Part shown: piece by piece, positions 1,368-24,392 of the stretch
Numbering within the stretch: position 1 is the stretch's first letter
How the letters are laid out: every line of letters starts with the position of its first letter
Assembly: GCF_000020025.1 (NCBI RefSeq)
Contig: NC_010628.1
Coordinates: forward strand, 4,560,001-4,592,000
Source: Nostoc punctiforme PCC 73102
GTDB taxonomy: Bacteria > Cyanobacteriota > Cyanobacteriia > Cyanobacteriales > Nostocaceae
Direction: 5' to 3'
DNA: 32,000 nucleotides
Notes under the pieces: generated by a model
What the model saw: the letters and a program-made list of their open reading frames with translations, nothing else
Told to the model about the DNA's origin: nothing
Databases searched by the model: none
Translations under genes and position numbers: made by a program

Positions 1368-1449
1368 TTATAATCTGGTGAAATACAAAAATAAATAATT
1401 TATACTTGCAAAAAGGCTTTAATTCCATAACTACTACAAGGATGTAGGT

Positions 1450-2289: not shown

Positions 2290-2330
2290 TTGAGAACTTT
2301 AAATCTAGAGAAACCCTCACTTGATTCTTG

Positions 2331-2492: not shown

Positions 2493-2629
2493 TGATTCTT
2501 GGGGAGATAAAGTGTAGTTTGGCGGGGTTGGTTGCAATGAATCTAGGAAATTATAACTAATTATCTAAACTTCATATTCATGAGGCAAAATTGTCAATAA
2601 ATTCTGACTCATTAATTTTATGTCAAAAA

Positions 2630-3124: not shown

Positions 3125-3364
3125 GGTTAATAATTTCTTGTTTTTACTTTGCCATTAAAATGCAAAGGTAGTTCGCATTAATCTAATTCCATTCTAGATG
3201 ATTTTTTCGTACTATTACTCCTAGATTTTAGGCTAGTAATATGTTTGCTGTCTCAACGAAAATTGAACCTGGTCATTACAGGGAGAAATGGAAGATAAAA
3301 AAACTGCTATTCTGTAACTATTAGTATCCTGCAAAAATTATTTTTTTAAAAACTCATGTTGTGC

Positions 3365-4702
3365 TTAATGCTTCATATCTTGAACAATCCTAAAACCAGC
3401 GTGTTGATAAAAATTAGGACGGAACCAGTTGCGATAATATTTTAAAGCTTCTGTACCGTTAGTTATCCAGCATCCTCCTAACATCATCTGATGTTTATTA
3501 TCAAAAAATATTGCAGAATTATCTTCGTAAAGGAAATGAGGCTTATATCCTGGTAAAGGATTTAAATTATCACTCAAGTGTTCCCAAACATTTCCGCGTA
3601 AATCGTACAATCCAGAATAACTTTTGGCGGTTTCTAACATTCCTACTGGACTAGGCGAGCCAAATTTTAAATTGACATTGTAATTGTCTACATCTTCTAC
3701 CAAACCACTACCATAAGTTGCTAAATGATATTCGGCTTCACTCATTAAACGAGTATCTTTCCCTTGCCAACAACAGTAAGCCATCGCTTCATAATGATTG
3801 ACCTCTACAGGCCAATCTAAGGGTAAGTCGATTTCATCAAACATGGCTCGATACTTGTAAATGCCATTTTGATGTATCCAAAATTTGGGATATTGAATGT
3901 TATTTTCAGTTTTCCAATGCCAAGATTCTTCATCCCAATACGCTTGGTTTTCGTAGCCACCAGCCTTGACAAAATAACTAAAATCGGCATTAGTAATTAG
4001 ATATTTACTGGCTAAAAAAGGTTCTACTTCAACAGTGCGATCGCCATAATCAATATCCCACCCATAGGTCGGATCGTTAAAGGCTTTGCCAAGTTTGACT
4101 ACCCCACCTATAACTTGTATCATTTCGTTTTGAGCAGTGTAGCCATTAAAAGGGGCATATTGCCAGTTTTGGGGGCGTTTCACTCTCTCAATTGGTAGTT
4201 GGCGAATCAACATTGAAGAGGTTTCAATATGAATACGCTGATGTTCAATCCCCATCATTAAAGCCCAGAGGGGATGAGTAGGGTGAATTGGTAGAGTAAT
4301 CGGAGTAGTTTTAATTACTTCGGCAATTACCGTATATGCTTGTTTTCGATACTCCCAAGTTTGTGCAACTTGTGGCCATTCTAAATGAGCGATCGCTTGA
4401 TTTAATTCCTCTGGTACTTCTGGATCAACTCCAATTTCAAACAGAATTTCATAATCTGGATTAATCCTTTTTTCTAATAATCCAACGCTAATTAATTTAT
4501 TAATATAGAAAACAGCCGAGTGTCCTAGATAAAAAATTAGAGGGTTTCTCAAAGGATCGGGATTGAGATAAAATGTATCCTCCTCCACTAAAGTTTTCAT
4601 CAGCATATCTTCTAGCTGCCAAGCATTCTCAAAATAATCGAGGATAACTTGGCGATCGCAACTATTTAGTTTAGGTGGATGAGTAGATTGAAGACTGTTC
4701 AT
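3365..4702 (-). CDS. egtB: Sulfoxide synthase of the ergothioneine pathway (EgtB function, OvoA-like sequence type; DinB-like N-terminal half plus FGE-sulfatase-like C-terminal half)
   Basis: The track ORF starts at a TTG at 4714. The ATG at 4702 (MNSLQSTHPP...) is the more likely start. The N-terminal half contains LRNPLIFYLGHSAVFYINKL and the C-terminal half contains YDLRGNVWEH and LGGCW, both of the FGE-sulfatase type. It lies co-directional with and adjacent to egtD. Confidence 0.7.
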   Translation of the reverse strand: MNSLQSTHPPKLNSCDRQVILDYFENAWQLEDMLMKTLVEEDTFYLNPDPLRNPLIFYLGHSAVFYINKLISVGLLEKRINPDYEILFEIGVDPEVPEELNQAIAHLEWPQVAQTWEYRKQAYTVIAEVIKTTPITLPIHPTHPLWALMMGIEHQRIHIETSSMLIRQLPIERVKRPQNWQYAPFNGYTAQNEMIQVIGGVVKLGKAFNDPTYGWDIDYGDRTVEVEPFLASKYLITNADFSYFVKAGGYENQAYWDEESWHWKTENNIQYPKFWIHQNGIYKYRAMFDEIDLPLDWPVEVNHYEAMAYCCWQGKDTRLMSEAEYHLATYGSGLVEDVDNYNVNLKFGSPSPVGMLETAKSYSGLYDLRGNVWEHLSDNLNPLPGYKPHFLYEDNSAIFFDNKHQMMLGGCWITNGTEALKYYRNWFRPNFYQHAGFRIVQDMKH

Positions 4703-5046
4703 GATGTAACTCAATTGCTATTATAGAGACGATTAACCCTGGCTGATTTACTTGAAAAACTTAATCAAAAAAATTGCTAATGTTAATTGTTGATTGCATT
4801 CCAACTCTATTTATATTTTTCCAGATATGTTGAATCTTGCTAAATTAAACATATCCATGAACAAACAAATGCCGCTTCATTGGGCATTTATAAATGGCGA
4901 AAACTATTGATATACTGTAGGACGAACAAAATACCTACCTGCCTTAAGTAAGTGCCATTCATGAACAAACCATAAGCTTTGTAAGTTAAGGTTTAAAGCC
5001 TAATTCACGGATATGTCTATTTAAATTCGGCTTTGGGAAGCAAAAT

Positions 5047-6021
5047 TTAAGCTTGGCAAAGAATTAACCCAAACCACTGATTGGGATCTGTCCAAGTTTT
5101 CAGAGTCTTAAGTCCATGTGTCTCCAGTTGTTTTTGCATATTTACTAAATCAAACTTGCGAGAAATTTCGGTGAGAATGCTCTCTCCACCAGCAAAGCTA
5201 ACTTGTAAATCTAGCGCTTCTAAAGATACCTCATGACTCTTTTGGCAATGCAGATACATTTCAATTTGAGCATCATTTTCATTATAAATAGCTTGGTGAG
5301 TAAATAAGCTGAGGTCAAAATTACCTTGAAAACGCCAATTTAAATGAGAAAGGATATTTAAATTAAAAGCAGCTGTTACTCCCTGACTATCATTATAAGC
5401 TGGCTCCAAAATTTCCTTGGGTTTTTGTAAATCAATCCCCAAAAGAAAGTAGTCTCCTGCTTGCAAAGTCCTAGTAATTTGTCTTAAAAAATCATCGCAT
5501 TCTCGTGGGTTAAAATTCCCAAGAGAACTGCCTAAGAAAAAAATCATCCGTGATGCTGCAAATGTTGATTCTAGCTTTATCAACGCTTGTTCATAGGTTC
5601 CTATTAATCCCTCAACAAAGAAATTTGGATATTTCTGTTGTAGTTTAAGTACGCTAGATTTAAGGATGCCATGACTAACATCAATGGGTATATATCTACA
5701 GTGGCTGGCAATTTTTTGGTAAGCATCTAGCAAAAAAAGAGTTTTTGTAGAACTGCCACTGCCTAACTCTACAAGTTCACAATTACCTGTTATCTGAGCT
5801 ATTTCATCGGCATATTGGCGTAAAATCCATGCTTCTGTTCGTGTTGGGTAATATTCTGATAATTCACATATTTGTTCAAATAGTTCCGAGCCGTAATCAT
5901 CGTAAAAATATTTAGGGGGTAAAGTTTTGGGACTTTGAATTAATCCTTGGATGACATCTTCACCCTCATTGTAGAGAGATCGATCGTTCTCATTAAGAGA
6001 TTTTAGATATGTTGCTAACAT
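5047..6021 (-). CDS. egtD: L-histidine N-alpha-methyltransferase (ergothioneine biosynthesis EgtD)
   Basis: Motifs include PPKYFYDDYGSELFEQICELSEYYPTRTE and ELGSGSSTKT (SAM-binding), plus IPIDVS and FFLGSSLGNF. The track start at 6084 is a TTG. The ATG at 6021 (MLATYLKSL...) gives 324 aa, which is a typical EgtD length. Confidence 0.85.
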   Translation of the reverse strand: MLATYLKSLNENDRSLYNEGEDVIQGLIQSPKTLPPKYFYDDYGSELFEQICELSEYYPTRTEAWILRQYADEIAQITGNCELVELGSGSSTKTLFLLDAYQKIASHCRYIPIDVSHGILKSSVLKLQQKYPNFFVEGLIGTYEQALIKLESTFAASRMIFFLGSSLGNFNPRECDDFLRQITRTLQAGDYFLLGIDLQKPKEILEPAYNDSQGVTAAFNLNILSHLNWRFQGNFDLSLFTHQAIYNENDAQIEMYLHCQKSHEVSLEALDLQVSFAGGESILTEISRKFDLVNMQKQLETHGLKTLKTWTDPNQWFGLILCQA

Positions 6022-6523
6022 GATGTCAATATCTTTAGTTCTGAATGAAGTACTTAATATGACATATTTAGTATTTAATAGCAAGGCTTATTTCTAAGTG
6101 ATTAATAATAGATTAAAATACGAAAAACCCCTCGATTTAGTGTGGTATCCAAGCAGATTTTACTAATTTAATATTTGCTGGTTTATTCAAGTATGAATTA
6201 ATAAATAAGTCGCTAGGAATAGACGTTACTACATTATTAGAGGTAAACATTATCTACTACTGAAAAATGGCGAAGTTCATAAGTTACCTGTATTGATAAT
6301 AACTTATACTCTGGTTAAAAATCATTGGAGCTTTAGTAGCGATCGCAATGCCCAAAAATTCTTGTTTTTATTTCAATAGATAACTGAAGTTTATCGAAGT
6401 CTGAGTTAATCGCATAACAATTTATCATTTTTTTCATCAAAGTTAAATAATTTGCGATGGACTGACTCAAAAAAATTGTGTTTTTTATCCCGTTTTTTGC
6501 TTAACTTTTCTCCTGTCAAAGAC

Positions 6524-6679
6524 GCTATGCAAGGGTGTATATACAAGTATTTTAAAGTGGTTCCACAGGATTTAGATTCCCTCTACAGTAATAGGAGCCA
6601 AAGTCCCCGTTAAGAAGGGTAATTTAGAAGGATCTAAAGCCGTTTTGTACCTTGTACAGAGTTGTGTGTACACCGTAGC
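6524..6679. repeat. Degenerate second copy of the 2331..2492 MITE family
   Basis: The right end TGTGTACACCGTAGC (6665..6679) is identical to that of the first copy. The left end GCTATGCAAGGGTGTATATACAAG.TATTTTAAAGT resembles GCTACAGTGTACACAAGCCTTTTAAAGT, and the internal CAAAGTCC...TTTAG.AG.ATCT segment is shared. I saw no flanking duplication. Confidence 0.5.
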
Positions 6680-6680
6680 T

Positions 6681-6747
6681 TAAAAGGAGAAAGGCTTTGA
6701 ATTTTACTGCCCTTTCCTTCAATTTCAATGCAATTGAGAATCGCTAT
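6681..6747. repeat. Small dispersed repeat, family B, abutting the degenerate MITE
   Basis: See 1272..1367. The shared ends are TAAAAGGAGAAAGGCTTTGA and CAATTGAGAATCGCTAT. Confidence 0.5.
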
Positions 6748-6974
6748 ATGGTATTGAGTAGGTAGTTAAAATTAAACATAATAGTAAAATTAAACATAAA
6801 ATAAAATCCTACTTTTGAGGGATGAATCGCTCAAGACTAGGATTTTTAGGACTAAAGTCCTTACTACAAACTTTAATTTATTTAGGCTTAGTTACTTATC
6901 TTTTATAGTTATTAAAGAAATTTACAAGTATGAGTTTCAATAAATTTAGTGCAACTAGTTTCGAGAAGCATACG

Positions 6975-7025
6975 GCGATGCCTTCACAGTAGGCATCGCG
7001 GATTTTAGATTTTATTCTAAAATCC
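6975..7025 (-). terminator. Two perfect hairpins just downstream of the pnp stop (candidate terminator)
   Basis: GGATTTTAGA/TCTAAAATCC forms a 10-bp stem (7000..7025). GCGATGCCT/AGGCATCGC forms a 9-bp stem (6975..6999). Neither has a clean U-tract, so terminator function is an inference. Confidence 0.4.
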
Positions 7026-12818: not shown

Positions 12819-14000
12819 AAAAGTGTTGAATGTTAAGAAAAATCCGATAAAAACAGCCCAAAATATGTTAAATTTTGGGCGGAAGATTAAAGTATATCTA
12901 TTTAATAGTGATTATAAATTCATTTCCCAAGATTGTCAAAGATATCTTGAGAGGACTGCCAAAAAACGATTATCCAGTATTGAACAGTCGTCTGTTCTTT
13001 GAGTGCTGGTTATCTTATGCTATGGATAACAGCTTAACAAGTATGCGAGATTTATTTAACAGATTAAACAACACAGGATTTCCGGTAGATATTTCTACTT
13101 TCTCTAAAGCAAACTTACATCGAAGTCAAAAACCTTTTCAAGAAATTTACCAAAAATTAAATGAATTAGTACAGAAGAAAGTTCAAAAAAAGTTACATGA
13201 TAAATATGCAATTTGTCCAATAGATTCAACAATTATTACTCTCACAAGTAAATTGTTATGGGTACTAGGACACCATCAAGTAAAACTTTTCAGTTCTCTA
13301 AATTTAGCTACTGGAAGTCCATCAGATAACTTCATAAACTTTGGACATGACCATGACTATAAATTTGGTTGTAAAATGATGTCTAGTCTACCAAATAATG
13401 CTGTTGGTGTAATGGATAGAGGTTTTGCTGGATTAAAATTTATCCAAGAATTAGTCCAAGAAAACAAATACTTTGTTTTGCGGGTAAAAAACAATTGGAA
13501 GTTAGAATTTGAGGAGCAAACTGGATTAATTAAAGTTGGTGCATCTAATGATGCTCAAGCCTATAGAGTGATTAATTTTTGTGATTTAGAAACGAAAACT
13601 GAGTTTCGATTAGTAACCAATTTACCAACATTAGGAGAGGCTGCCGTTAGTGATTATGAAATCAGGGATATTTATCGATTGCGTTGGGGAGTTGAATTGT
13701 TGTGGAAGTTTTTGAAAATGCACTTAAAACTTGACAAGTTAATTACTAAAAATGTTAATGGTATCACCATACAAATTTACGTTACTTTAATAGCTTATCT
13801 AATTTTACAGATATTATCTGTACCACAACAATGGGGACATACGCTATTAGATAAATTCCGCTATTTACAATCTTGTATGTGTCAGAAAATAAGTTATGTT
13901 CATTGGTTTGAAGAGATGATGTCATGTTGACTATTTTAGGCTTTTTAGAGTTAGTGTAACTAGATATGTAAACTTTTGTATCAGCATTCAACATTTCTGA
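12819..14000 (+). mobile_element. IS4-family insertion sequence (~1.18 kb)
   Basis: Flanked by the direct repeat (A)CTTAAACCC at 12809/12810..12818 and 14000/14001..14009. It has imperfect terminal inverted repeats sharing TGTTGAATG (12824..12832; reverse complement at 13985..13993). It contains a single transposase ORF and no HIP1 site. Confidence 0.85.
12875..13930 (+). CDS. IS4-family DDE transposase
   Basis: 351-aa ORF. It has PIDSTIITL (first D), GVMDRGFAG (second D) and the YREK-type signature IYRLRWGVELLWKFLK. The track start is a TTG; a GTG at 12908 (MIINSFPK...) is an alternative. Confidence 0.85.
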   Translation: MGGRLKYIYLIVIINSFPKIVKDILRGLPKNDYPVLNSRLFFECWLSYAMDNSLTSMRDLFNRLNNTGFPVDISTFSKANLHRSQKPFQEIYQKLNELVQKKVQKKLHDKYAICPIDSTIITLTSKLLWVLGHHQVKLFSSLNLATGSPSDNFINFGHDHDYKFGCKMMSSLPNNAVGVMDRGFAGLKFIQELVQENKYFVLRVKNNWKLEFEEQTGLIKVGASNDAQAYRVINFCDLETKTEFRLVTNLPTLGEAAVSDYEIRDIYRLRWGVELLWKFLKMHLKLDKLITKNVNGITIQIYVTLIAYLILQILSVPQQWGHTLLDKFRYLQSCMCQKISYVHWFEEMMSC

Positions 14001-14555: not shown

Positions 14556-15392
14556 ATGACTAATTACACATTACAAGCAAGTCGAGAATGGTGGTCACAA
14601 CAATGGCTAGATTTGCTAGATTCCTATCGCTTTAAAAAGCGTTTAGAACGTGCGAGAAATTATGCTCGTCAAGGAAATGTTCTGAGTATCGAATTTAAAG
14701 GTGCAAAAGTATTGGCTAGGGTGCAAGGCAGTGAAGTTGAACCTTATAAAGTTTCCCTTTCCCTTGAACCATTTACTGATGAACAGTGGGGTTATGTAAT
14801 TGAAACCATGTCCCAAAGAGCAATTTTTGCTGCAAAATTACTAGCAGGAGAAATGCCACAAAATATAGAAGAAGTATTCACGGCAAATGGTCTTTCGATA
14901 TTTCCTTTTACCCTTGCTGATGTCCAGAGTAAATGCTCTTGTCCTGATAAAGCAAATCCCTGTAAACATATTGGTGCCCTGTACTATCAGTTAGGCGATC
15001 GCTTCAGTGAAGACCCCTTTGTACTATTTCAATTGCGCGGACGCACTAAAGAGCAAATTATCAGCGATTTACGACAATTACGTAGTACCAAGATTCAACC
15101 TAACACCACAGAAACGCCCGATATTCAACAATCAATTCCTAATAACAAATACTCAGTGAAAATTGACTCTTTCTGGCAATATAATGAGCCACTAGAGTCA
15201 TCCTTGGTAGTGATTGCGCCGTCCACTAGTGAGATGGTATTAGATGTATTAGGAGCAATTCCTCTAGCGAAGGAAGAGGAAAATACAGTAAATTCAACTT
15301 CGAGTGATCTGGTAATGAAGTATTTAAATACAGTTTACAGAGATGTGAGTCAGAAGGCTTTTTTAGCAGCAATGAATGTGGGAGAAAGCTGA
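14556..15392 (+). CDS. SWIM zinc-finger protein (partner of the SNF2 helicase)
   Basis: 278 aa. The CxC...CxH SWIM signature is CSCPDKANPCKH, followed by IGALYYQL. The N-terminus WWSQQWLDLL...RLERARNYARQGNV is typical of the SNF2-associated SWIM family. Confidence 0.85.
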   Translation: MTNYTLQASREWWSQQWLDLLDSYRFKKRLERARNYARQGNVLSIEFKGAKVLARVQGSEVEPYKVSLSLEPFTDEQWGYVIETMSQRAIFAAKLLAGEMPQNIEEVFTANGLSIFPFTLADVQSKCSCPDKANPCKHIGALYYQLGDRFSEDPFVLFQLRGRTKEQIISDLRQLRSTKIQPNTTETPDIQQSIPNNKYSVKIDSFWQYNEPLESSLVVIAPSTSEMVLDVLGAIPLAKEEENTVNSTSSDLVMKYLNTVYRDVSQKAFLAAMNVGES

Positions 15393-15397
15393 TAATA

Positions 15398-15486
15398 ATT
15401 CGTAATGACGCGACGCTCCTGCGTCGCTAACGCTTCGCTATCGCGGACTCGCTACCGCTACGCTAACGTAATTCGTAATTCGTAAT
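15398..15486. repeat. AATTCGT heptamer array carrying a nested ~59-bp GC-rich mini-insert
   Basis: AATTCGTAAT | GACGCGACGCTCCTGCGTCGCTAACGCTTCGCTATCGCGGACTCGCTACCGCTACGCTAAC | GTAATTCGTAATTCGTAATT. The insert (15408..15466) contains the hairpin GCGACGC-TCCT-GCGTCGC. Confidence 0.6.
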
Positions 15487-15505
15487 TATGAACTAGGTTG
15501 GGTAG

Positions 15506-15709
15506 TTCAATATTTACCCACTTCCGCACTGCCTAACGAATTGTCCGTCTGCCATTTGCCCGATTTTTATCAATGAGTTTTGGCAGATATCGAATTGCTA
15601 AAGTAGGAAATACTAAACTGTTCTCTAACTCGACATATTCCCCATTTTGTAGGTGGTAAATCTTTAGTTCACTGGAGTCATAACACCAGAGTTCTGGTAC
15701 TCCCAGCGC
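15506..15709 (-). pseudogene. Uma2-family (DUF820) endonuclease, C-terminal remnant
   Basis: The minus strand from 15709 reads ALGVPELWCYDSSELKIYHLQNGEYVELENSLVFPTLAIRYLPKLIDKNRANGRRTIR*AVRKWV. The GVPE.W.YD...L.IY.LQNGEY...S..FP pattern is typical of the Uma2 C-terminus. There is an internal TAG at 15535..15533, and homology stops abruptly at 15709 where the repeat begins. Confidence 0.7.
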
Positions 15710-15845
15710 GAATTTCTCACAAACAATAAAAAATCAATTCACATCACTTGATACAAGACATTTTTTGATACATCATCAATTGAAATTTATGAGACTAAAC
15801 AAAGTAAGTATAAATTAGCAATTATCAGGCTTCAAGCAATCAAAA
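15707..15845 (+). repeat. ~140-bp repeat, copy 1 (left boundary of the island)
   Basis: AATTTCTCACAAACAATAAAAAATC (15711..15735) is identical to 19650..19674. The remainder aligns with 19675..19750 plus 21489..21528 at roughly 70-75% identity by eye, with small indels. Confidence 0.7.
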
Positions 15846-16001
15846 TTTTACACAGTAAAATCAACTCTTTACCCCTTTCAGTACCTCAAGCTTGCCCATA
15901 AACAATCATTTTTGGTGATGTTTTCATCTTCAGTTGACATCAAAACCACGGTTTGAAACAACGCTAAATCAATGGTTTCAACTCTTTGAAGTTACAAAAC
16001 T

Positions 16002-16278
16002 TTACAACGTGTCCCAATTTACACGTATCCCGGCTGTACCCCATACCCGCTTAACTTCTACATAATCATTGCCAGTCACGACATTATATATGTCTGGATT
16101 TGTCAAACGCTGCCACTCAGCAAAACCTATTCTGCTGGTGGAAATGTTTTAATAGCACGGTCATTAAATTACCATGCGTGACAATAATCGTAGTCTTAGT
16201 ATCGTACAACAAAATTTTATTTACTACTGCAACTGCCCGTTGCATTGCGGCACGACTTGATTCACCACCTAACTCTCG
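16002..16278 (-). pseudogene. Histidine phosphatase (phosphoglycerate mutase-like) family remnant: C-terminal part only, with a frameshift
   Basis: The minus strand reads RELGGESSRAAMQRAVAVVNKILLYDTKTTIIVTHGNLMTVLLKHFHQQN, matching the GGES...R...V.HG pattern. After a frameshift near 16120..16128 it continues GFAEWQRLTNPDIYNVVTGNDYVEVKRVWG...*. The N-terminal catalytic RHG part is absent. Confidence 0.6.
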
Positions 16279-16625
16279 AAAAAAAATCTGCAAGTATGAT
16301 TATGATTTTATTTTGAAGCTGAGAGGAAAGGAAAGACATTTACCTCTTGGGATATATGTTTACTGTACAAAAAACGCGAAACTGATATATAAAGATGTAG
16401 CGGAAGTGAGCTTTGAATCTTTTTTCTTTCGCCCTCTTTCCTATCTTCTCTCCAGTGAATTGTTAAGTTCGCCAACAGTATCCATAAGCTTTTTTCAATG
16501 TGAAAGCTATACCCAGATAGCATTATACTCTTTTTTTACCTTCGATTTTGTTTAAGTCCCGATATCGCTTTTAGTTTAAATTCCAACCGAAAACTTCTCA
16601 AAACGCTAAAACTCACAAAGAAAAA

Positions 16626-19091
16626 ATGAAACTTTTAACGATTGACACCAAAAACAATTGTTACGTTATTGACGCTAATGCAATGAACCACCTGCAACAA
16701 GATGTTGCTAGCACTTTTACTTTGGAGAAAGGGACTTTTGATATAAGAATTACCAGTGGTCGCTATAGTTATGCTCAGAGCGAAACTGAAGGCGAACCTT
16801 TGGTTGTACTTTGGATATATGGGGCTGATAGCAGTACATTTATCAACAAAAACACAGGCACTGAAACAGGTGCAACTTGGACAACTTTAAACGGATACAA
16901 CAAGAAATTACAGTTGGAAGTCAAAGGAAAAACTGTTATTTGTGCTTTATTTTTTGATGTTAACAATAGTGAGAACAAAGGATCGATCAATCTTTTAGTT
17001 AGCAGCAATAAACCACATTTTAATCCTCAAACTATAACAGTTGACAGTAAGCAAAACTGTTATGTTCTTGATGAAAAAGTTATATCCAATCTGAAGCAAC
17101 CAAGTTCCAATTTTGTTGAATTGGAACCAGGCAATTACAAGATAAAGATTCGTGAAAGCAACGCTACTTATTGGTCTTCTGAGCAAAGATTTCAATTAGA
17201 GCCTTGGGCTTTGCTATGGATTAAAGATGGGAAATTTGTTTCTAACCTTACTGGTCTTGAAGTTAAAGAAACTTGGTGTTCGCTCAATGGATTACAAGAC
17301 GAATTCATTTTAGAAGTTAAAGAAAAAACCACTATTTTAGGATTTTTCTTTGATACCTACAAAGAAGATAACAAAGGACAAGTTGTTCTAGAAATTAACA
17401 CAGTGAGTCAGGCTGTAGTAACTACAGGCTATGACAATCAGCCGAAACCGCCAGTAACAGGAGTGCCAGACGGTAATGTGAATGAAGAAGGCAATGTCAC
17501 TGTTGTAAGCACTGGAGGAACAGGTTCTGCTATCAGTAGTGGAGGAGGAAGCTTCAGTGGAGGAAGTAGCTTCAGCGGAGAGAATGCTTTCAGCTTCAGT
17601 TTCGATCAAGATCAGATGGAGCGAATGTGGCAAGAGATGTCAGCCAGGCTCGAAAGCTCAGTAAGCGTAACGGCTCAAAAAGACGAAAATAAACAAGCCT
17701 ACTGGGAAGGTCTTGAAAAATCGATACTCAAAGGCTATCAAAGCCAAGCTAAGCAACTTGCCATGCAGGTAGCACGGCTTGAGTTCATGATGAAGACTCT
17801 GATACAACAAACGGAGGTAAATTTTAACCAAAGCTTCCAAGGTTGGTCTAGTTACTTTAATAAAAATCTCAATGACTTGTTTATTACGAGAATTCCCAGA
17901 ATAGTTAACGATCAGGTCCATCTGGCAATTACTGAACAAACCCAAGAAGTTAAAAACTTAGTAATTCAACAGATACAAACAGAACTCAATGAGCGTGTTG
18001 AGTCTGTAGTTAATCTGAAACTCACTAATCAAGCTCAAGAGATTAAGGCTTCAGTCGTTCAGCAAATGCAAACAGAACTGGAGCAACGGATAGAAAATGT
18101 CGTTAATGTCAAAATTGCTAATCAATCTCAACAGATCAGCAATCAAGTCATTAACCAGATATCAAATGACATTGACCAGCGCATTGAGAATGTGGTTAAT
18201 GTCAAAATTGCTAATCAATCTCAACAGATCAGCAATCAAGTAACTCAGCAGATACAATTTGACATCGATCAGCGTATTGATAATGTCGTCACCCTGAAAA
18301 TTTCTGATCACACCCAGGATGTCAATAATCTTGTGATTCAGCAAATGCAAACCTACATTGAGGAACGGATTGACAATGCAGTTAACATCAAAATTGCTAA
18401 TCAAGCCCAAGACATTACCACTCAAGTGGTTCAGCAGATCCAAATCAACATTGATAAGCGTATTGATGCGGTAGTTAACCTTAAAATCGCTAATCAAACC
18501 CAAAATATTAAGAGCCTGGTAGTCCAACAGATTGAAGCTGATTTCGATCAACGCATCAAGTCTGTCGTTAACCAATCTACCAATAACAATGTTCAGTTAG
18601 TCGTTAATAATGTCGCCAACGAGCTTGATAATCGCATCAATGTCAACTTAGACAATAAAATTGTCAACTTCCGCAATGAAGTATCTATGCTCGTTAACAA
18701 TGAGATTAACCAAAACTTCACGGAGTCTCTCAAAACGACGATTTTATCAGATATCAAAAAACAGCAGTTTTACATTGATATGCAGTCAATCAAAGCTGAG
18801 GTGGAGAACTTTTACGCCCGTTTAGGACAGTTTGAGAGTCAGTTATATTTTCGTATTGAACAGGGTGATACCCAACTTTATAATTGGACTCTCGAACAAC
18901 TTATTGCCCTTCAAGGTTGCTTAACCGATCGCCAAGCTCTGGTTGAGATTTTTGAGGTCTTCGCCTGTAACCTTAAAGACCAACTAAATGGTGCTGAATG
19001 TGTTCATCCTAATCGGTTTACCCCTTGGGTAAGAAGAACTTCGCAAGCACAATTTCAGCCTATGGAGCCTCAGCAACTGCCAAACGCTTAA
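16626..19091 (+). CDS. 821-aa modular repeat protein of unrecognised family
   Basis: Uninterrupted 2466-nt ORF with an ATG start. Residues 1-135 and 136-262 are paralogous domains. Residues 295-326 form a Gly/Ser-rich linker. Residues 436-652 are seven 31-aa repeats. The C-terminal ~170 aa look helical. I see no signal peptide, TM helix, lipobox or NTPase motif. Confidence 0.8.
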   Translation: MKLLTIDTKNNCYVIDANAMNHLQQDVASTFTLEKGTFDIRITSGRYSYAQSETEGEPLVVLWIYGADSSTFINKNTGTETGATWTTLNGYNKKLQLEVKGKTVICALFFDVNNSENKGSINLLVSSNKPHFNPQTITVDSKQNCYVLDEKVISNLKQPSSNFVELEPGNYKIKIRESNATYWSSEQRFQLEPWALLWIKDGKFVSNLTGLEVKETWCSLNGLQDEFILEVKEKTTILGFFFDTYKEDNKGQVVLEINTVSQAVVTTGYDNQPKPPVTGVPDGNVNEEGNVTVVSTGGTGSAISSGGGSFSGGSSFSGENAFSFSFDQDQMERMWQEMSARLESSVSVTAQKDENKQAYWEGLEKSILKGYQSQAKQLAMQVARLEFMMKTLIQQTEVNFNQSFQGWSSYFNKNLNDLFITRIPRIVNDQVHLAITEQTQEVKNLVIQQIQTELNERVESVVNLKLTNQAQEIKASVVQQMQTELEQRIENVVNVKIANQSQQISNQVINQISNDIDQRIENVVNVKIANQSQQISNQVTQQIQFDIDQRIDNVVTLKISDHTQDVNNLVIQQMQTYIEERIDNAVNIKIANQAQDITTQVVQQIQINIDKRIDAVVNLKIANQTQNIKSLVVQQIEADFDQRIKSVVNQSTNNNVQLVVNNVANELDNRINVNLDNKIVNFRNEVSMLVNNEINQNFTESLKTTILSDIKKQQFYIDMQSIKAEVENFYARLGQFESQLYFRIEQGDTQLYNWTLEQLIALQGCLTDRQALVEIFEVFACNLKDQLNGAECVHPNRFTPWVRRTSQAQFQPMEPQQLPNA
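17931..18581 (+). repeat. Seven tandem 93-bp (31-codon) coding repeats
   Basis: Units start at 17931, 18024, 18117, 18210, 18303, 18396 and 18489. The peptide consensus is [AT]NQ.Q.I...V.QQIQ..I[DE]QRI.NVVN.KI. Units 3 and 4 share a perfect 47-bp stretch (18102..18148 = 18195..18241). Confidence 0.9.
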
Positions 19092-19244
19092 TTATCCCAA
19101 CTACATATCTGACTTTTCACCCTACATTCCGCAGGTTAGTTAAGAAAGAAGATAATATTTTTGACAAGGAGCGCCAAAAAACTGGAGAATCCATCGCCGT
19201 TCATGAGTTTAGTTGGCAATTTGCTTTATTTGGGCGACGGGAAC

Positions 19245-19530
19245 GGGGTCAAATGAGCAACGGTACAGATACGCTAAGGCTGTAACCCTTACTGTACAAG
19301 CATTCTGCTAATCGATATTTTTGGCAATTCTCAATGTACCAATTAACCTATAGGCTATTTGGTGTAACCATTTAATACGGCACAGCAAGGCTTTGAAGCT
19401 CCTAAATTTCAGAGACTTCAATTGGTACAGTTTCATCCGTGGCGATGCCTGCGGCGGCAAGCTACGCAGTATTGAAAACAGCCTATTAATTCCTTAGCGT
19501 AACTTTCGGAATCACTGCTCATTTGACCCC
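19245..19530. repeat. 286-bp segment bounded by perfect 15-bp inverted repeats (possible MITE or long hairpin)
   Basis: GGGGTCAAATGAGCA (19245..19259) is the exact reverse complement of TGCTCATTTGACCCC (19516..19530). The interior contains family-B-like and GCTACGC-type repeat fragments. No target duplication is visible. Confidence 0.45.
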
Positions 19531-19645
19531 TAAAAGCAGCTAGGATTTTAGCGTCTGGTTAGCCTGATGAGCTTTTGACAGTTGATGAAATCAAGATTGT
19601 AAAAGAAGCTTGTAAAAAGTGTTCTGTTGAAAAGAAACGCATTAA

Positions 19646-19750
19646 CGCAAATTTCTCACAAACAATAAAAAATCGATTTATATGGACTGATATGAGATAT
19701 TTTTTCGATACATCACCCATTCAAATTGACGTAGATAAATAAACTAAGTA
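19646..19750 (+). repeat. ~140-bp repeat, copy 2, left part (interrupted by the IS5-type element)
   Basis: Aligns with 15707..15810 of copy 1, and the first 25 nt after CGC[A/G]A are identical. Confidence 0.7.
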
Positions 19751-21488
19751 GGGCTTGCTGAAAAAGTCATAAAAAAGCAATTCTTTTGGGTTGACTAGTT
19801 ATTTAAGCAAGGTCAAAGATAAGTTTTTGTTGCCTATAGCTAGCAAAATCATAATGCTTGGTTATGTCAATCGCTAAAAAATGTCTATTTTTCCAAAATA
19901 GACATAAAAAGGCACAAAAAAACCGTGACAGGTGAGTAGAAAGATTCATGACTAAAAAAGTAATAGCAATCACAGTTAGAGTTGTATGAGGAAGTTTCGC
20001 CATTACTCTACTCAAGCTAAATCTTCTTTTAGCTTGTCCAAATTTGCCTTCAATACAATTACGAATCCTCTCATCTTGTAAAGCTTGCTTCTTTTTTTCT
20101 TTACTCACATTTTTTGGCGGTCTTCCTAAAGGAACTCCACTGATTCTAATACCTCTTTCTTTGCACCAAGATCGGTTTTCTCGCTTTGCGATAAATTTTA
20201 TCAACATGAACAGATTCTGGATAATATCCAGTGTAGTTTTTAAAGGATTCTATTTGTGTTTTTAAGTCTCCTGATTCATTAAAGTTATCCCATCTAATAT
20301 GGTCTAAAAATGCATATCCATCAAAGTAACTAGCAGATAGTTTAGCGCCAAATTCCACGGCTTTACCCGCTTTTCCTCGGACAATTGGACGGATATGTGG
20401 TTGGCTTAAACTTACAATACGGTCATCAATGCTCTGCTTTTTATTTTCATACAGCCATAGTTGTTGACGATATACTTCTGCGACTACCAGCAACATCTTA
20501 TATTGTCTATTAGTTAAACTTTTTAGAGATGCTCCTGCTACAATTAGCTGGTCAATATAGGATAAGTTTCTTTTAATATATTGGAGTTGTTTTTTAATCG
20601 CTTTTCTCCTCTCTTTTTGAGATACACGACGTTTTTTAGCTACTTCTAAGTAGTCTTTCCTAGCTATTTCTCGGTAAGTCCTTGGTTTTTTCTCTAATAT
20701 TCCCTTTATCTGTTCATAAAGCAAGTCAATTATTCTTTCTGTCTGTTTTCTCGCTTGATTTAATAGGTTTAAATCTGTTGGATAGCTGATATCACTAGGC
20801 ACACAAGTCGCATCTAATATTAATTTCCCTCGATTTCTTAGCGTATTACCTTGTTCTGCTGCTTTTTCTGTCGATAGCGCAGCGTTAGCGAGTTCGCGAG
20901 CGTCTTCTGTTTTTTTTTCGGTGTCAATAGAAGATGCTAACTCTAGCATCTTCTTAACCATTTCTTGATTCACATTATTGACTAGTTCTGCACTGATTCT
21001 TTCTCGAAAATGTACTAACATGGATGCGTCAAATGGAGTTTTGTTACTATAAGATGACATCCCTATAAAGTACTGTAAATAAGATTCTCCTTGATTTGCT
21101 CTACTGTTTCCCTGTCGCTTATACCTAGTTTCTCTTTAATTATTAATGCACCTAACGCCATCCGAAATGACTTTGCTGGTGCCCCTATCTCTGCGGAGAA
21201 TCCGGCAGAATATTCCGACTCAAATTCTGTCCAGGGTATTAAATCGGCCATAATTACCCAACGATTATCTGATGATAACTTTCCCTCAAATGGAAGCTCA
21301 AAACTTTCTGCTGGAATTGGAGTTGATTCTTCTTTTCAGTACATAGTTAATAATGATACACTATGCTGCGACGAACCACTGTGATGCAAGGATTTTGGGC
21401 TATTTTACCTTCTTGTCTTGCACCTGAATATACTTCTTTGGTCTGAGAATCTAGAGACTGCAACCTTTTCTTTTTTTTCAGCAAGCCC
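19751..21488 (-). mobile_element. IS5-family insertion sequence (~1.74 kb), decayed
   Basis: The terminal inverted repeats are GGGCTTGCTGAAAAA (19751..19765) and TTTTTCAGCAAGCCC (21474..21488). TAAGTA is duplicated at both junctions (19745..19750 and 21489..21494). If the IRs instead include the flanking TA, the duplication is only AG. The uninterrupted copy 1 has a single TAAGTA at the equivalent site. Confidence 0.8.
19803..21251 (-). pseudogene. IS5-family transposase (DUF772 N-terminal domain plus DDE domain) broken into three ORFs by two frameshifts
   Basis: The ORFs are 21251..21063, 21060..20146 and 20207..19803. Break 1 is near 21080: the reading ...EQIKEN-LIYSTL* should continue as YLQYFIGMSSYSNKTPFDASMLVHFRERI in another frame, which looks like a 1-nt loss. 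Break 2 is near 20185: DKIYR then switches frame to RENRSWCKERGIRISGVPLGRP. The tail RNCIEGKFGQAKRRFSL is typical of IS5. Confidence 0.8.
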
Positions 21489-21528
21489 TAAGTATAAATT
21501 AGTATTTCTCAAGCTAAAACAATTACTC
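21489..21528 (+). repeat. ~140-bp repeat, copy 2, right part (right boundary of the island)
   Basis: TAAGTATAAATTAGTATTTCTCAAGCTAAAACAATT aligns with 15805..15845 of copy 1 (TAAGTATAAATTAGCAATTATCAGGCTTCAAGCAATCAAAATTT). Confidence 0.6.
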
Positions 21529-21624
21529 CCGATGCTCTCCCAAGTCTTTTAGAAGATTTTCAAACTGTTGCCAGCTAATGTCGTAAAGCATTACTCGGTC
21601 TGCTCGATTTTTAGCGACTGTCAT
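21523..21624 (-). pseudogene. Uma2-family endonuclease, N-terminal remnant (33 codons)
   Basis: The ATG at 21624 is preceded by GGAGG. The reading is MTVAKNRADRVMLYDISWQQFENLLKDLGEHRE*, matching the Uma2 N-terminal pattern L.nISW..[FY]E.LL.DLG. The reading frame ends exactly where the repeat begins. Confidence 0.65.
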
Positions 21625-21645
21625 TGTTACGACCTCCAGAATGTT

Positions 21646-21831
21646 TTATTGGCCAAACTCAAGCCTAGCCTGTTCTACCAAATCACCTGTAACAATCTCT
21701 TGACCTGCTTCACGAGCTAGCTGTTCAATTCTGGCTTTAGCTTGAGAGCGGACAAAAAAGGGAATATTTTGTAACTTTTCTTTAGCTTCTGGTGTCCACC
21801 GCAAAGCATCAATAAAATTAGAGTCGCTCAT
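21646..21831 (-). CDS. Small PCP_red-domain protein (related to the protochlorophyllide reductase 57-kDa subunit C-terminal domain)
   Basis: 61 aa with an ATG start. [51 protein letters not shown] matches the W..eA...L..IP.FVR......iE..Ar pattern. Confidence 0.7.
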
Positions 21832-21888
21832 AGTATTAATTCCTTTGGTAAGTCGCTGAGTTTAATCAATAGATTACTAATTTTCTTA

Positions 21889-21920
21889 TAAAAAAAGCCC
21901 TTGCTTTTACGCAAGAGCTT
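21889..21920 (-). terminator. Intrinsic terminator downstream of psbC
   Basis: The minus-strand RNA is GCUCUUGC-GUAAAA-GCAAGGGC followed by U7. This is an 8-bp stem with one G.U pair, about 45 nt after the psbC stop. Confidence 0.75.
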
Positions 21921-21961
21921 TTAAATTATTTAGTTGTCAGTGATGAAATAAACTTTATAAC

Positions 21962-23353
21962 CTAATCTAGGTCGTCCATGAACATCACTGGCTCAGTATC
22001 ACGGTTAATTCCTTTCTCAAAACCACCAGCCGCAGCCCGTGCGCGACCAGCGTGCCACAAGTGACCAACTAGGAAGAAGAATCCTAGTACGAAGTGAGAA
22101 GTTGCCAACCAAGCGCGAGGAGATACGTAGTTGAACGAGTTAATTTCGGTAGCCACACCACCCACGGAGTTCAGAGAACCCAGAGGAGCGTGGGTCATGT
22201 ATTCAGCAGCGCGACGAGCTTGCCAAGGCTGAATATCGTTCTTGATTTTTTCCAAGTCAAGACCATTGGGGCCACGTAGAGGCTCCAACCAAGGACCACG
22301 GAAATCCCAGAAGCGCATGGTTTCACCACCGAAGATGATTTCACCAGTTGGAGAGCGCATCAGGTATTTACCTAGACCTGTGGGGCCTTGGGCAGAACCA
22401 ACGTTAGCACCCAAGCGTTGGTCACGAATCAAGAAGGTCAAAGCTTGAGCTTGAGACGCTTCTGGACCGGTAGGGCCAAAGAATTCGCTAGGATAAACGG
22501 TGTTGTTGAACCAAACAAAGATCGAGGCAATAAAGCCCATCAACGACAGAGCGCCCAAGCTGTAGGAGAGGTAAGCCTCACCAGACCAGATGGATGCACG
22601 ACGTGACCAAGCAAAAGGCTTGGTAAGAATGTGGAAAATACCACCAGCAATACAGATGAAGGCAATCCAGATGTGACCACCGACCACATCTTCTAAGTTA
22701 TCAACGCTGACAATCCAGCCTTCACCACCGAAGGGAGACTTGATTACATAACCGAAGATAACTGCTGGGTTCAATGTGGGATTGGTAATAATCCGAACGT
22801 CACCACCGCCTGGTGCCCAGGTGTCATACAACCCACCGAAGAACATTGCTTTTGCTACCAATAGCAGCGCACCGAATCCCAAAATAATCAGATGGAATCC
22901 GATGATGTTGGTCATCTTGTTCTTGTCTTTCCAGTCGTAACCAAAGAAAGAAGAGTATTCTTCTAAGGTTTCTGGACCACGAACGGCATGATAAATACCG
23001 CCAAAGCCAAGAACGGCTGAGGAAATTAGGTGGAGTACACCGACAACAAAGTAGGGGAAGGTGTCGATGACTTCACCACCAGCACCAACGCCCCAACCCT
23101 GTGTAGCGAGGTGAGGTAACAGGATCAAGCCCTGTTCGTACATGGGTTTTTCAGGAACAAAGTGAGCGACTTCAAACAAAGTCATCGCTCCTGCCCAGAA
23201 TACAATCAAGCCAGCATGGGCAACGTGAGCGCCCAGAAGTTTGCCAGATAGATTGATTAAACGCGCATTACCAGACCACCAGGCAAAGCCAGTAGATTCT
23301 TGGTCGCGTCCAGTGCCGCCTAATATATTTGGTCTATTAGAGAGCGTTACCAC
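21962..23353 (-). CDS. psbC: Photosystem II CP43 chlorophyll apoprotein
   Basis: [41 protein letters not shown] and the rest of the sequence are unmistakable. The track start at 23380 is a TTG. The conserved N-terminus (M)[17 protein letters not shown] begins at the GTG at 23353, which overlaps the psbD 3' end. Confidence 0.95.
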
Positions 23354-24392
23354 GTGGTAATACCTCCTCAGGGAATACAAATTGTTCGTGGGGTTGATCT
23401 TGAGGAGCCATCCAAGCGCGGATACCCTCGTTCAGCAAAATGTTTTTGGTATAGAAGGTTTCAAACTCAGGGTCTTCCGCCGCCCGTAATTCTTGGGAGA
23501 CGAAATCATAAGCTCGCAGGTTGAGTGCTAAACCGACGATGCCGACGGCACTCATCCACAAACCTGTGACTGGCACGAACAACATAAAGAAGTGCAACCA
23601 GCGTTTGTTTGAGAAAGCAATCCCGAAAATCTGTGACCAGAAACGGTTTGCTGTCACCATTGAATAGGTTTCTTCAGACTGGGTTGGATTGAAGGCGCGG
23701 AAGGTGTTAGCTCCATCACCGTCTTCAAATAAGGTATTTTCAACTGTGGCACCGTGAATGGCGCATAATAATGCACCACCCAATACACCAGCAACACCCA
23801 TCATGTGGAAGGGGTTGAGTGTCCAGTTGTGGAAGCCTTGCAGGAATAGCAGGAACCGGAAAATTGCAGCCACCCCAAAGCTGGGTGCAAAGAACCAGCT
23901 TGATTGTCCCAAGGGGTACATCAGAAATACGCTGACGAATACTGCAATGGGAGCTGAGAAGGCGAGGGCGTTATAAGGACGGATTCCTACTAGACGCGCA
24001 ATTTCAAATTGCCGCAACATAAAGCCAATCAAACCAAAGGCTCCGTGTAGGGCAACGAATGGCCACAAGCCACCCAGTTGGAACCAACGGGTGAGGTCGC
24101 CTTGGGCTTCTGGTCCCCACAACAGCAATAGGGAATGTCCCATGCTGTCGGCGGGGGTGGATACTGCCACTGTTAGGAAGTTAGCACCTTCTAGGTAGGA
24201 GGAGGCTAATCCGTGGGTATACCAAGAGGTGACGAAGGTGGTGCCGGTCAGCCAACCGCCTAGTGCTAGGAAGGCGCAGGGGAACAACAGTATCCCTGAC
24301 CAACCTACGAATACGAAGCGATCGCGCTTGAGCCAGTCGTCTAGAACGTCAAACCACCCTCTACTGGGCGCACGTCCAACTGCGATGGTCAT
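23337..24392 (-). CDS. psbD: Photosystem II D2 protein
   Basis: 351 aa with an ATG start. It reads [41 protein letters not shown]...[12 protein letters not shown]. Confidence 0.98.

Follow-up and report, generated by a model that had tools for sequence, protein, structure and literature searches.

The window, a stretch of 32,000 nucleotides from Nostoc punctiforme PCC 73102, contains a 5.8-kb island between a SWIM gene and the PCP_red and psbC genes, next to genes of photosystem II, where it separates two remnants of a Uma2 gene. The features of this interval, with positions counted from the start of the window, are as follows.

15533..15706, minus strand: Uma2 C-terminal remnant, 57–58 codons plus a stop one codon early (translation, tblastn/blastn, and junction alignment)
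15707..~15832, plus strand: R1, a solo right-end remnant of an IS1380-family element, IS positions 1 to ~126
15836..16046, unstranded: partial MITE-like element, the right ~210 bp of ~310 bp, with terminal inverted repeats of ~42 bp
16030..16293, minus strand: histidine-phosphatase pseudogene (PF00300, E = 8.5e-6), the C-terminal ~85 codons with one frameshift
16626..19091, plus strand: intact gene for an 821-aa protein (from the ORF list), the sole intact cargo gene
19245..19530, unstranded: complete 286-bp MITE with 15-nt perfect terminal inverted repeats, GGGGTCAAATGAGCA
19646..19748/50, plus strand: R2, left part, an IS1380-family right-end remnant, IS positions 1–105, with its tip at 19646
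19749..21490, minus strand: IS5-family element inside R2, bounded by 17-bp perfect inverted repeats, its 2–4 bp target duplication lying within AAGT
21489/91..~21524, plus strand: R2, right part, IS positions ~104–140 (from alignments), an internal IS breakpoint joined to Uma2
21528..21624, minus strand: Uma2 N-terminal remnant, 32 codons, with its ATG at 21624–21622 and GGAGG at 21637–21633

Neither Uma2 remnant was significant by itself in a Pfam search. Both aligned to one syntenic intact orthologue of 197 amino acids, which matched PF05685 (Uma2, putative restriction endonucleases; E = 1.5e-18) over residues 18–169. The remnants correspond to residues 1–32 and ~141–197 of this protein, and the 108 codons lost from the centre comprised most of the PF05685-matched Uma2 core. 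The DNA identity to the syntenic orthologue was 92–98% for the N-terminal part and 85–92% for the C-terminal part, and both values fall inside the range observed among the orthologues themselves. An intact 197-codon Uma2 gene was located between the SWIM gene and PCP_red/psbC in at least 20 related Nostoc genomes, and the same gene order was also found in Fortiea, Tolypothrix, and Stigonema-like MAGs. These comparisons show that the ancestral order was SWIM, intact Uma2, PCP_red, and psbC, and the fragment at 15533..15706 is a pseudogene fragment of the resident ancestral Uma2. In the alignment with the related locus L019, homology ended at window position 15705/6 and restarted at 21528, with 324 bp between these points in L019. 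The island breakpoints were thus located to the single-base level, and positions 15707..21527 stand in place of 324 bp (108 codons) of central Uma2. The original prediction, made from the letters of the window alone, had read the two minus-strand remnants as a single gene split by an insertion, given their order and orientation and the GGAGG and ATG retained by the N-terminal part, and had proposed that a deletion accompanied or followed the insertion. The empty sites in the Nostoc genomes, the match of both remnants to one syntenic orthologue rather than to different paralogues, and the loss of 324 bp of Uma2 bear this out, although its estimate of 85–90 missing codons was too low. Its reading of the interval as an acquired or rearranged accessory island is likewise supported by the empty sites, the remnant matches, and the HIP1 depletion described below. 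The contigs of close strains, obtained by exact protein look-up via SWIM and PCP_red, were 100% identical to the window and contained no empty site; they break in repeats at 15424 and 21465.

At each truncation point of Uma2, the original prediction had placed one copy of a direct repeat of about 140 bp, estimated by eye to be 70–75% identical. Two diverged copies are indeed present, and alignment raises their identity to 77–80% (BLAST E = 5e-20 within the window), but they are not duplicates of one sequence. Each copy was shown to be the outermost 126–140 bp of an IS right end, and the two copies come from different IS1380-family lineages. The 25-mer AATTTCTCACAAACAATAAAAAATC, correctly reported as identical in both copies, occurs exactly twice in the window, against 0 expected occurrences, and is the conserved terminal inverted repeat of these two lineages. 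Right here denotes the IRR side, which lies downstream of the transposase gene; R1 and R2 have the same orientation. When metagenomes were scanned with the 22-mer of the tip, it was detected in 58 loci, more than 40 of which lie ~96–117 bp from contig ends in one assembly; such clustering is the signature of a high-copy IS end. A complete 1,838-bp IS (L172), located on plasmid pNe_5 of Nostoc edaphicum, has an annotated intact IS1380 transposase and is flanked by a 4-bp target duplication, TGTG. A second full IS (L107) encodes an IS1380 transposase on the opposite strand (NF033539, 269 bits; PF13701, E = 2.5e-98). In both of these, R occupies the end on the downstream side of the transposase gene, and its tip starts with CGC. 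L172 and the high-copy JAESFO01 IS both have an IRR identical to the tip CGC(G/A)AATTTCTCACAAAC, and the left end of L172 carries CCCGGATTTCTCACC in inverted orientation. R2 was 93–98% identical to positions 1–140 of L172 (98% over positions 1–105), whereas R1 was only 80% identical to L172 and was 88–90% identical to copies of the high-copy IS from the metagenome (L137, L146, and L159). A local duplication was rejected as the source of R1 and R2 because R1 is nearer to IS copies of other samples than to R2. An origin of R in the middle of Uma2 or of a paralogue was rejected because BLAST detected no similarity to the intact orthologues, and an RNA was rejected because there was no Rfam match in 15300–21900.

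The two borders of the island differ in kind. On the left, the tip of R1, CGCGAATTTCTCAC, directly adjoins Uma2, and because an exact IS tip is joined to the gene at 15706/15707, this border is a true transposition junction. On the right, at ~21524–21527, an internal IS position (~140 of 1,838) is joined to Uma2, which identifies a deletion junction. The window contained neither a transposase remnant, in tblastn searches with the L172 transposase, nor the left-end motif. R1 and R2 are therefore remnants and not functional ISs, since their full-length relatives encode a transposase of the NF033539/PF13701 type, and a target duplication is unreadable in the window because the left ends of both ISs are deleted.

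The interior of the island was shown to be a mosaic of a partial plasmid-type MITE, the histidine-phosphatase pseudogene, the intact 821-aa gene, and a complete MITE. The left third of the ~310-bp MITE-like element is gone at its junction with R1. Copies of the remaining part were detected in 42 cyanobacterial plasmid records at 69–91% identity, and five plasmid copies have, ~58 bp to the left of the matched stretch, an additional right end in inverted orientation, for which reason we read the element as a MITE and not as an RNA. This ~210-bp part had no match in Rfam, nor did it show a convincingly conserved RNA fold. A structured RNA was discarded as an explanation because RNAalifold, applied to nine copies, found almost no covariation and energies of −2.5 and −4.7 kcal/mol for the two strands; a short ORF within the element was not conserved. 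In tblastn searches, the pseudogene matched annotated histidine phosphatase genes at residues 8–85, and the frame translations agreed with the frameshift. The 286-bp MITE has many copies, at 76–87% identity, on plasmids of Nostoc, Tolypothrix, Microchaete, and Trichormus, and also occurs in loci L164 and L120. The truncated and frameshifted phosphatase remnant, the 286-bp segment bounded by inverted repeats, and the 821-aa ORF had all been recognized beforehand. Named cyanobacterial MITEs include Nezha, of 130–170 bp, and a ~224-bp Anabaena MITE (PMC3184786). Like these, the elements described here are short, non-coding, bounded by terminal inverted repeats, and multicopy in Nostocales, but their sizes differ, at 286 bp for one and ~310 bp for the other, whose inverted repeats measure 42 bp.

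The decayed element that had been predicted to lie within the second repeat copy is a member of the IS5 family, as indicated by its DDE transposase, its inverted repeats, its short duplication, and an empty site in the related contig L104, which reads AAACTAAGTATAAATT. Its transposase is broken into pieces of 62, 304, and 134 aa, which matched PF05598 and PF13586; the largest fragment scored 263.6 bits against NF033578, below the cutoff of 275 because the ORF is broken. The copy in the window has a private 1-nt deletion relative to L011. L104 carries the same island (96.9% identical) with the same R2/Uma2 junction and without the IS5 element, and in the right flank it is the nearest relative of the window (96.6% vs 95.1% for L019). 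Because L104 has both the island and this junction without the IS5 element, the island and the deletion came first and the IS5 element was inserted later. An IS4 element in the neighbouring SNF2 gene is strain-specific, whereas the IS5 element is common to the close-strain contigs. The IS4 element arrived after the IS5 element and is a very recent gain by the window strain.

HIP1 sites, GCGATCGC, numbered 23 in the window and 0 in the island, against 5.4 expected from the density in the rest (Poisson P ~0.005), and the HIP1 depletion of the island is real. Both observed counts had been given correctly in the original prediction, with an expected count of ~4 that falls short of the computed value, but the HIP1-free gap also covers native genes: it runs from 15003 to 24317 (9.3 kb) and includes 3.5 kb of native DNA, with psbC, in which 3.2 sites were expected (P ~0.04). 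Because the adjoining native psbC is also HIP1-free, the signal is weak alone at the 5-kb scale. Elhai et al. (2012) reported that anomalous octamer frequencies help to detect transposons and recent transfers (PMC3497702). The island resembles such HIP1-poor recent acquisitions in that neither it, nor both ISs, nor the 821-aa gene contains GCGATCGC, against a background of ~0.9 sites per kb, and differs from them in that native psbC next to it lacks the motif as well; the 821-aa gene was free of HIP1 in every context looked at. The absence of HIP1 is thus a usable yet weak flag of foreign DNA at this scale. The predicted AT-richness of the island did not prove to be a distinguishing mark. Its GC content (37.2%) is lower than that of the rest of the window (41.5%), but SWIM (39.2%) and positions 1–7000 (35.3%) show that such values are not distinctive, and GC was discarded as a sign of foreign DNA.

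We consider it moderately probable that an IS1380-bounded composite or ISEcp1-like unit landed in Uma2 and that one deletion followed. The segment would have moved as a single unit between IS1380 ends, either as a composite of two ISs in direct orientation or as an ISEcp1-like unit in which the transposase of the right-hand IS, of the R2 lineage, would have paired its own left end with the IRR of R1. In the latter case, R1 would be a decayed left-hand copy with a still-perfect IRR, and everything downstream of the right-hand IS's own IRR would have been carried along. After landing, a single deletion would have taken out ~320 bp of Uma2 and ~1.7 kb of the right-hand IS, everything from IS position ~141 to the left end, and so have fixed the island in place and erased any target duplication. 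The geometry fits such a course: the tip of R1 is oriented as suits an IRR role for an IS on its right, it points left as does the tip of R2, and the cargo (15833..19645) lies between the two, downstream of the R2 IRR. The island is now without a transposase and immobile. ISEcp1/ISEc9, of the IS1380 family, perform one-ended transposition, use alternative IRRs, and mobilise DNA downstream of the IRR, and they generate direct repeats of 4–5 bp (PMC12116815). Several points count against this reading. The demonstrations of one-ended transposition come from enterobacterial ISEcp1-type elements and would apply to the cyanobacterial relatives only by analogy. Searches of 80 related Nostocales loci and 72,556 plasmids turned up neither a donor copy of the unit nor a less-decayed version that retains a full IS, and the contexts of seven 821-aa homologues also contained no donor locus; elsewhere, homology to the island extended only to the 821-aa gene or to single MITEs and IS ends. 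The target duplication, which would have been the proof of a single transposition, was lost at the right junction. The R1/MITE junction requires an additional, earlier deletion, and the near-equal internal cuts in the two IS remnants (~126 and ~140) are unpredicted by transposition as a unit and count against it. The latter objection is only softened by other solo tips in metagenome loci, which are also short (38, 45, 48, 70, and 175 bp).

A possible but rather doubtful alternative is stepwise assembly in situ, in which a lone R1-type IS1380 element would have entered Uma2 first, and later insertions, recombination, and deletions would have brought in the MITEs, the phosphatase fragment, the 821-aa gene, and the second IS, and trimmed both ISs. 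The instability of the locus is in keeping with this: at least four other states of the SWIM–psbC interval occur in other Nostoc genomes, in which Uma2 is absent, is truncated at differing points, or has its C-terminal part replaced by a gene for a Gly-rich repeat protein, or in which an extra gene stands in place of PCP_red, making the interval a recurrently remodelled spot. Nested ISs are also frequent in these IS1380 right ends (IS5 here; IS982, IS630, and IS5 in L159, L148, and L122), and the very recent IS4 gain in the window strain points the same way. However, stepwise assembly requires more events than a single unit does. Because the tip of R2 adjoins DNA other than Uma2, it also demands that the first IS lost its body, and Uma2 its middle, in exchange for the 3.9 kb lying between R1 and R2. 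Moreover, no intermediate was present among the 80 related loci, none of which carried R, the 821-aa gene, or the MITEs at the Uma2 site.

It is improbable that the disrupted allele instead came in as a whole from a different Nostoc lineage, through homologous recombination via the SWIM/psbC flanks. In favour of such an import, the Uma2 C-terminal remnant is 92% identical to its best orthologue, compared with a mean of 96% between an orthologue and its nearest neighbour, but pseudogene drift accounts equally well for this extra divergence. Also in its favour, the island is common to L104, whose flank is only ~1.5% closer than those of genomes without the island, whereas the L104 island and flank (96.9% and 96.6%, over only 770 bp of flank) are about equally similar to the window, as vertical co-inheritance predicts. 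Such an import describes a route of arrival and is compatible with an IS-mediated origin in the donor. A site-specific integrative island with attL/attR repeats, or an ancestral split from which intact Uma2 was derived, had the direct repeats around the insert as its sole support and is already refuted, as R has no match in intact Uma2 and so is not target-derived, R1 and R2 are only 77–78% alike and each nearer to IS copies elsewhere, the left border is an IS tip, the window holds no integrase or recombinase among its ORFs or Pfam matches and no tRNA, and intact Uma2 occupies the same site across several genera.

Transposition as an IS1380-bounded unit has parallels in two known systems. The island agrees with ISEcp1/ISEc9 units in its IS family, as judged from the transposase HMM in full-length relatives, in cargo placed past the IRR on the downstream side of the transposase gene, and in a far boundary formed by a correctly oriented IRR-type sequence; the relative L172 also has a 4-bp target duplication. 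It departs from those units in that only 140 bp of the driving IS are left, it resides in a cyanobacterium, its cargo is something other than a resistance gene, and its alternative IRR is the genuine IRR of a decayed second IS rather than a weak chance match; the island has no intact IS or flanking duplication, and its transposition as a unit is inferred. Composite transposons of the Tn9 type consist of directly repeated ISs. The island resembles them in having related ISs in the same orientation around unrelated cargo and an outermost tip that forms the target junction, but its ISs belong to different lineages (77–78%), are cut to their outer 126–140 bp, and have no transposase. Only tentatively may the island be regarded as a relic of one-ended transposition in the ISEcp1 style, or of defective-composite transposition, carried out by an IS1380-family element of a cyanobacterium. 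It is an ordinary product of IS activity and not a new type of element, and it leaves the current view of transposition and cyanobacterial genome biology unaltered. It provides a base-resolved example of how ISs put together small accessory islands in Nostoc and later leave them stranded, here beside the core psbDC operon, and illustrates that direct repeats around an insert need not be a duplication or att sites, being here the solo IS ends of two lineages. ISEcp1-style capture of cargo is known mainly from the spread of beta-lactamase genes in enterobacteria; if it operated here, it would also move chromosomal and plasmid genes between Nostoc replicons.

The captured cargo would then be a widely conserved protein whose head is a beta-sandwich and whose body is a coiled coil. 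The 821-aa protein comprises two N-terminal beta-sandwich domains (AF2 pLDDT ~90 over residues 1–270), a Gly/Ser linker, and a helical region of ~450 residues with repeats of ~31 aa. Sequence searches of Pfam, NCBIfam, PHROGs, PADLOC, and PDB all returned no match, and a Foldseek search against PDB yielded weak bicupin- or adhesin-like beta-sandwich matches (probability ≤0.41) that we did not trust. The only plausible function of the island is that of this protein. Its 280 homologues are all annotated as hypothetical and occur in unrelated contexts, and the dN/dS of the gene relative to L104 is 0.37, which points to a conserved and selected gene of an unannotated cyanobacterial family that travels with mobile DNA.

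Using the SWIM protein as the query and one genome per species, 80 Nostocales loci with 10-kb flanks were collected as relatives of the region. The order SWIM, an intact 197-codon gene, PCP_red, and psbC was found in at least 20 Nostoc genomes, as well as in Fortiea, Tolypothrix, and Stigonema-like MAGs. The intact gene is a Uma2 gene (PF05685, E = 1.5e-18) that holds the sequences of both remnants in the window in the correct order and orientation, as anticipated by the original prediction that one minus-strand gene had been split and that related genomes would retain the empty site. The features of the region, including all the contents originally listed for the island, are as follows.

Features of the island and its surroundings (window coordinates)
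12819-13999: IS4-family element, 1,181 bp, with a 351-aa transposase (NF033592)
15533..15706, minus strand: Uma2 C-terminal remnant, translation ending in ...ALGVPELWCYDSSELKIYHLQNGEYVELENSLVFPTLAIRYLPKLIDKNRANGRRTIR and a stop
15707..~15832: R1, left copy of the flanking direct repeat
15836..16046: partial MITE, right two-thirds of a ~310-bp non-coding element
~16030..16293: histidine phosphatase fragment, C-terminal ~85 codons only, with one frameshift
16626..19091, plus strand: ORF821, an intact 821-aa gene
19245..19530: complete MITE, 286 bp, bounded by inverted repeats, with many plasmid copies
19646..19750 plus 21489..~21524: R2, right copy of the flanking direct repeat
19749-21490: nested IS5 element, within R2
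21624..21528, minus strand: Uma2 N-terminal remnant, translation MTVAKNRADRVMLYDISWQQFENLLKDLGEHR, with GGAGG ahead of the start

When the window was compared with L019, a Nostoc MAG sharing 99% SWIM protein identity, homology stopped at 15705/6 (L019 11160) and restarted at 21528 (L019 11485), indicating that 324 bp (108 codons) of Uma2 have been replaced by 5.82 kb. A central deletion is thus confirmed, although it is larger than the 85-90 codons first estimated. The N-terminal remnant shared 92-98% DNA identity with the Uma2 orthologues (pairwise mean among orthologues there, 94%) and the C-terminal remnant 85-92% (pairwise mean, 91%). Because these values are comparable to those between orthologues, the remnants derive from one split orthologue, and an origin from two paralogues was ruled out; the C-terminal remnant nevertheless appears to have undergone some extra drift. 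None of the 80 Nostocales loci contained the R sequence, ORF821, or the MITEs at this site.

Gene content in the SWIM-psbC interval changes repeatedly among Nostoc genomes, marking it as a hotspot (L021, L033, L034, L036, L041, L045, L028, L037, L027, L048, L049, and L052). In some genomes Uma2 is wholly absent, and in others only N-terminal pieces with differing breakpoints are present; in several, a gene for a 500-700-aa Gly-rich repeat protein (MPRFTVPPNFTGTAGSDTL...) replaces the C-terminal part of Uma2, and in one, PCP_red is replaced by a 248-aa gene. The SWIM-Uma2 spacer of the window contains a ~60-bp GC-rich insert (15407-15466; GACGCGACGCTCCTGCGTCGCTAACGCTTCGCTATCGCGGACTCGCTACCGCTACGCTAACG) between TAATTCGTAAT repeats, which is absent in L020, L024, and L039 and at which short-read contigs of sibling strains break. 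A 20-nt, 95% complementary copy lies within the IS5 element (20872-20891), and the insert looks like a candidate small dispersed repeat of Nostoc.

The direct repeat at the island edges is real: R1 and R2 were 77-80% identical (E about 5e-20 within the window), and their shared 25-mer occurred exactly twice in the window, with 0 expected. An exact scan of metagenome contigs for the tip 22-mer TTTCTCACAAACAATAAAAAAT identified 58 loci, more than 40 of which, all in assembly JAESFO01, matched ~96-117 bp from a contig end, with unique DNA extending up to ...(A)CGCAAATTTCTCAC; this pattern is that of a high-copy insertion sequence end. Contigs extending past the R sequence led into a transposase gene of the IS1380 family, encoded on the opposite strand (in L107, NF033539 at 269 bits and PF13701 at E = 2.5e-98), and a complete 1,838-bp copy with an annotated intact IS1380-family transposase was found on the Nostoc edaphicum plasmid pNe_5 (L172), with the right-end (IRR) tip CGCAAATTTCTCAC, the left end (IRL) CCCGGATTTCTCACC, and a 4-bp target duplication, TGTG. 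These two loci place R at the outermost IRR end, downstream of the transposase gene. R2 was 93-98% identical to positions 1 to ~140 of the L172 element, whereas R1 was only 80% identical to it and 86-90% identical to the ISs of JAESFO01, L159, and L107. Since R1 and R2 are closer to different ISs, they represent the ends of two IS lineages rather than diverged copies of one sequence as originally proposed, and a local duplication was rejected. Their identical first 25-29 nt represent the conserved transposase-binding terminal repeat. Neither a transposase remnant nor a left-end IS motif was found in the window. Other ISs have inserted time and again into the ~260-bp non-coding right end of these IS1380-family elements (IS982, IS630, and IS5 in L159, L148, and L122; IS5 in the window), which could be the reason that short solo tips are common.

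At the left border, the IS tip at 15707, CGCGAATTTC, lies directly against Uma2 ...CTCCCAG, which makes this border a transposition junction. At the right border, IS position ~140 (...AAAACAATTACTC) is joined to Uma2 ...CGATGCTCTCC, which makes this border a deletion junction; this position internal to the IS, together with the lost 324 bp, agrees with the predicted deletion during or after insertion. R1 itself ends at IS position ~126, abutting another repeat whose left side is truncated. What requires explanation, then, is two IRR ends in the same orientation, the left with its outer tip at a true junction and the right cut internally along with 324 bp of the target. In the simplest history, which we judge to be probable, if only just, an IS1380-bounded unit extending from the IRR tip of R1 (left) to the IRL of a full R2-lineage IS (right) would have transposed into Uma2, and a single deletion would then have removed the DNA from IS position ~141 through the IRL into Uma2. 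It may have been an ISEcp1-type transposition unit, or else a composite in which two ISs lie in direct orientation; elements of the IS1380 family are known to mobilise DNA beyond the IRR via alternative IRRs, producing 4-5 bp repeats (PMC12116815). This two-step history has weak points: a search for a donor copy of the unit found none, the target duplication is lost, and the truncation of R1 and R2 at nearly the same point (~126 and ~140) has no explanation. The last is less troubling because other solo tips (38, 45, 48, 70, and 175 bp in the metagenome loci) are short too and the right end is a frequent IS landing pad, where nested ISs would promote deletions. The main rival, stepwise assembly in situ, draws on the evident instability of the SWIM-psbC interval in other Nostoc genomes, but we regard it as rather unlikely. 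The island is an IS-built accessory islet, now immobile, and its predicted acquired or rearranged nature is supported by the empty sites and the breakpoints mapped against L019.

The JGI contig L104 shares the island, from window position 15997 on, with 96.9% identity and an identical R2/Uma2 junction. It lacks IS5, and across the IS5 insertion site its unbroken R2 has the sequence AAACTAAGTATAAATT. In the 770-bp right flank, L104 was the nearest to the window (96.6% versus 95.1% for L019). The island and the deletion therefore arose before the window and L104 split, and IS5 was inserted after. The IS5 copy in the window shows a 1-nt deletion private to it when compared with a sibling strain. 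The IS4-family element splits a DUF3670/SNF2 helicase gene and is flanked by a 10-bp target duplication (ACTTAAACCC). Sibling contigs from many sequencing runs, otherwise 100% identical, lack it and encode an intact 1,094-aa helicase, which makes the insertion strain-specific and very recent; it is the youngest event.

The HIP1 octamer GCGATCGC occurred at 23 sites in the window, as originally counted, with none between 15003 and 24317. The island contained 0 against 5.4 expected (P about 0.005), rather than the roughly 4 first estimated, but the gap reaches native psbC, and the adjacent native 3.5 kb including this gene also had 0 against 3.2 expected (P about 0.04). Outside the island, the window mean was 0.9 per kb; with the island and IS4 removed, the largest gap was 3.5 kb and the next largest 2.9 kb. 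HIP1 density in native genes is clearly non-uniform. The core genes psbC and most of psbD (21962-24317; 49-51% GC) were HIP1-free over about 2.4 kb. The ORF821 homologues were HIP1-free in every genome examined, and octamer anomalies are an accepted flag of recent transfer and transposons in cyanobacteria (PMC3497702). Taken together, the absence of HIP1 supports the conclusion of foreign DNA but does not carry it. The supposed AT-richness does not set the island apart, its GC content (37.2%) not being distinctive within the window.

The ~310-bp element was found in 42 cyanobacterial plasmid records (Nostoc, Calothrix, Planktothrix, Anabaena, Dolichospermum, and Gloeothece). Five plasmid copies had an inverted copy of the 42-bp right end ~58 bp left of the matched part, indicating a MITE with long (~42-bp) terminal inverted repeats (GGGGTACAGCCGGGATACGTG.AAATTGGGACACGTTGTAAAG; copies at L163 2901-3210 and L165-L168). 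An Rfam search gave no match, and a conserved fold was not convincing. On plasmids, the element was often located near par or mob genes.

ORF821 has at least 280 homologues, all annotated as hypothetical, and searches for family, defence-system, phage, and PDB matches returned none. In its AlphaFold model, residues 1-270 form two beta-sandwich domains with high confidence (pLDDT ~90), and long helices of low confidence come after them. Compared with the L104 copy, dN/dS was 0.37 overall and 0.15 in the N-terminal domains, indicating purifying selection. Proteins with 88-89% identity were encoded in Nostoc FACHB-133, Anabaena WFMT, and Trichocoleus FACHB-832, in a different genomic context in each and with DNA homology confined to the gene. 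A few genes from the homologue in FACHB-133, and likewise in a related metagenome contig, lie small phage-like ORFs and a protelomerase gene of the ResT/TelK type (L099 12309-13070; L100 8709-10559), which points to a linear plasmid or a prophage as the setting of these homologues. The protein was 86-89% identical across strains labelled Trichocoleus, Allocoleopsis, Anabaena, and Nostoc (P0003, P0005, P0006, and P0009), whereas the neighbouring SWIM protein is down to ~80% identity even when only Nostocales are compared, a contrast that hints at horizontal spread of the ORF821 family.
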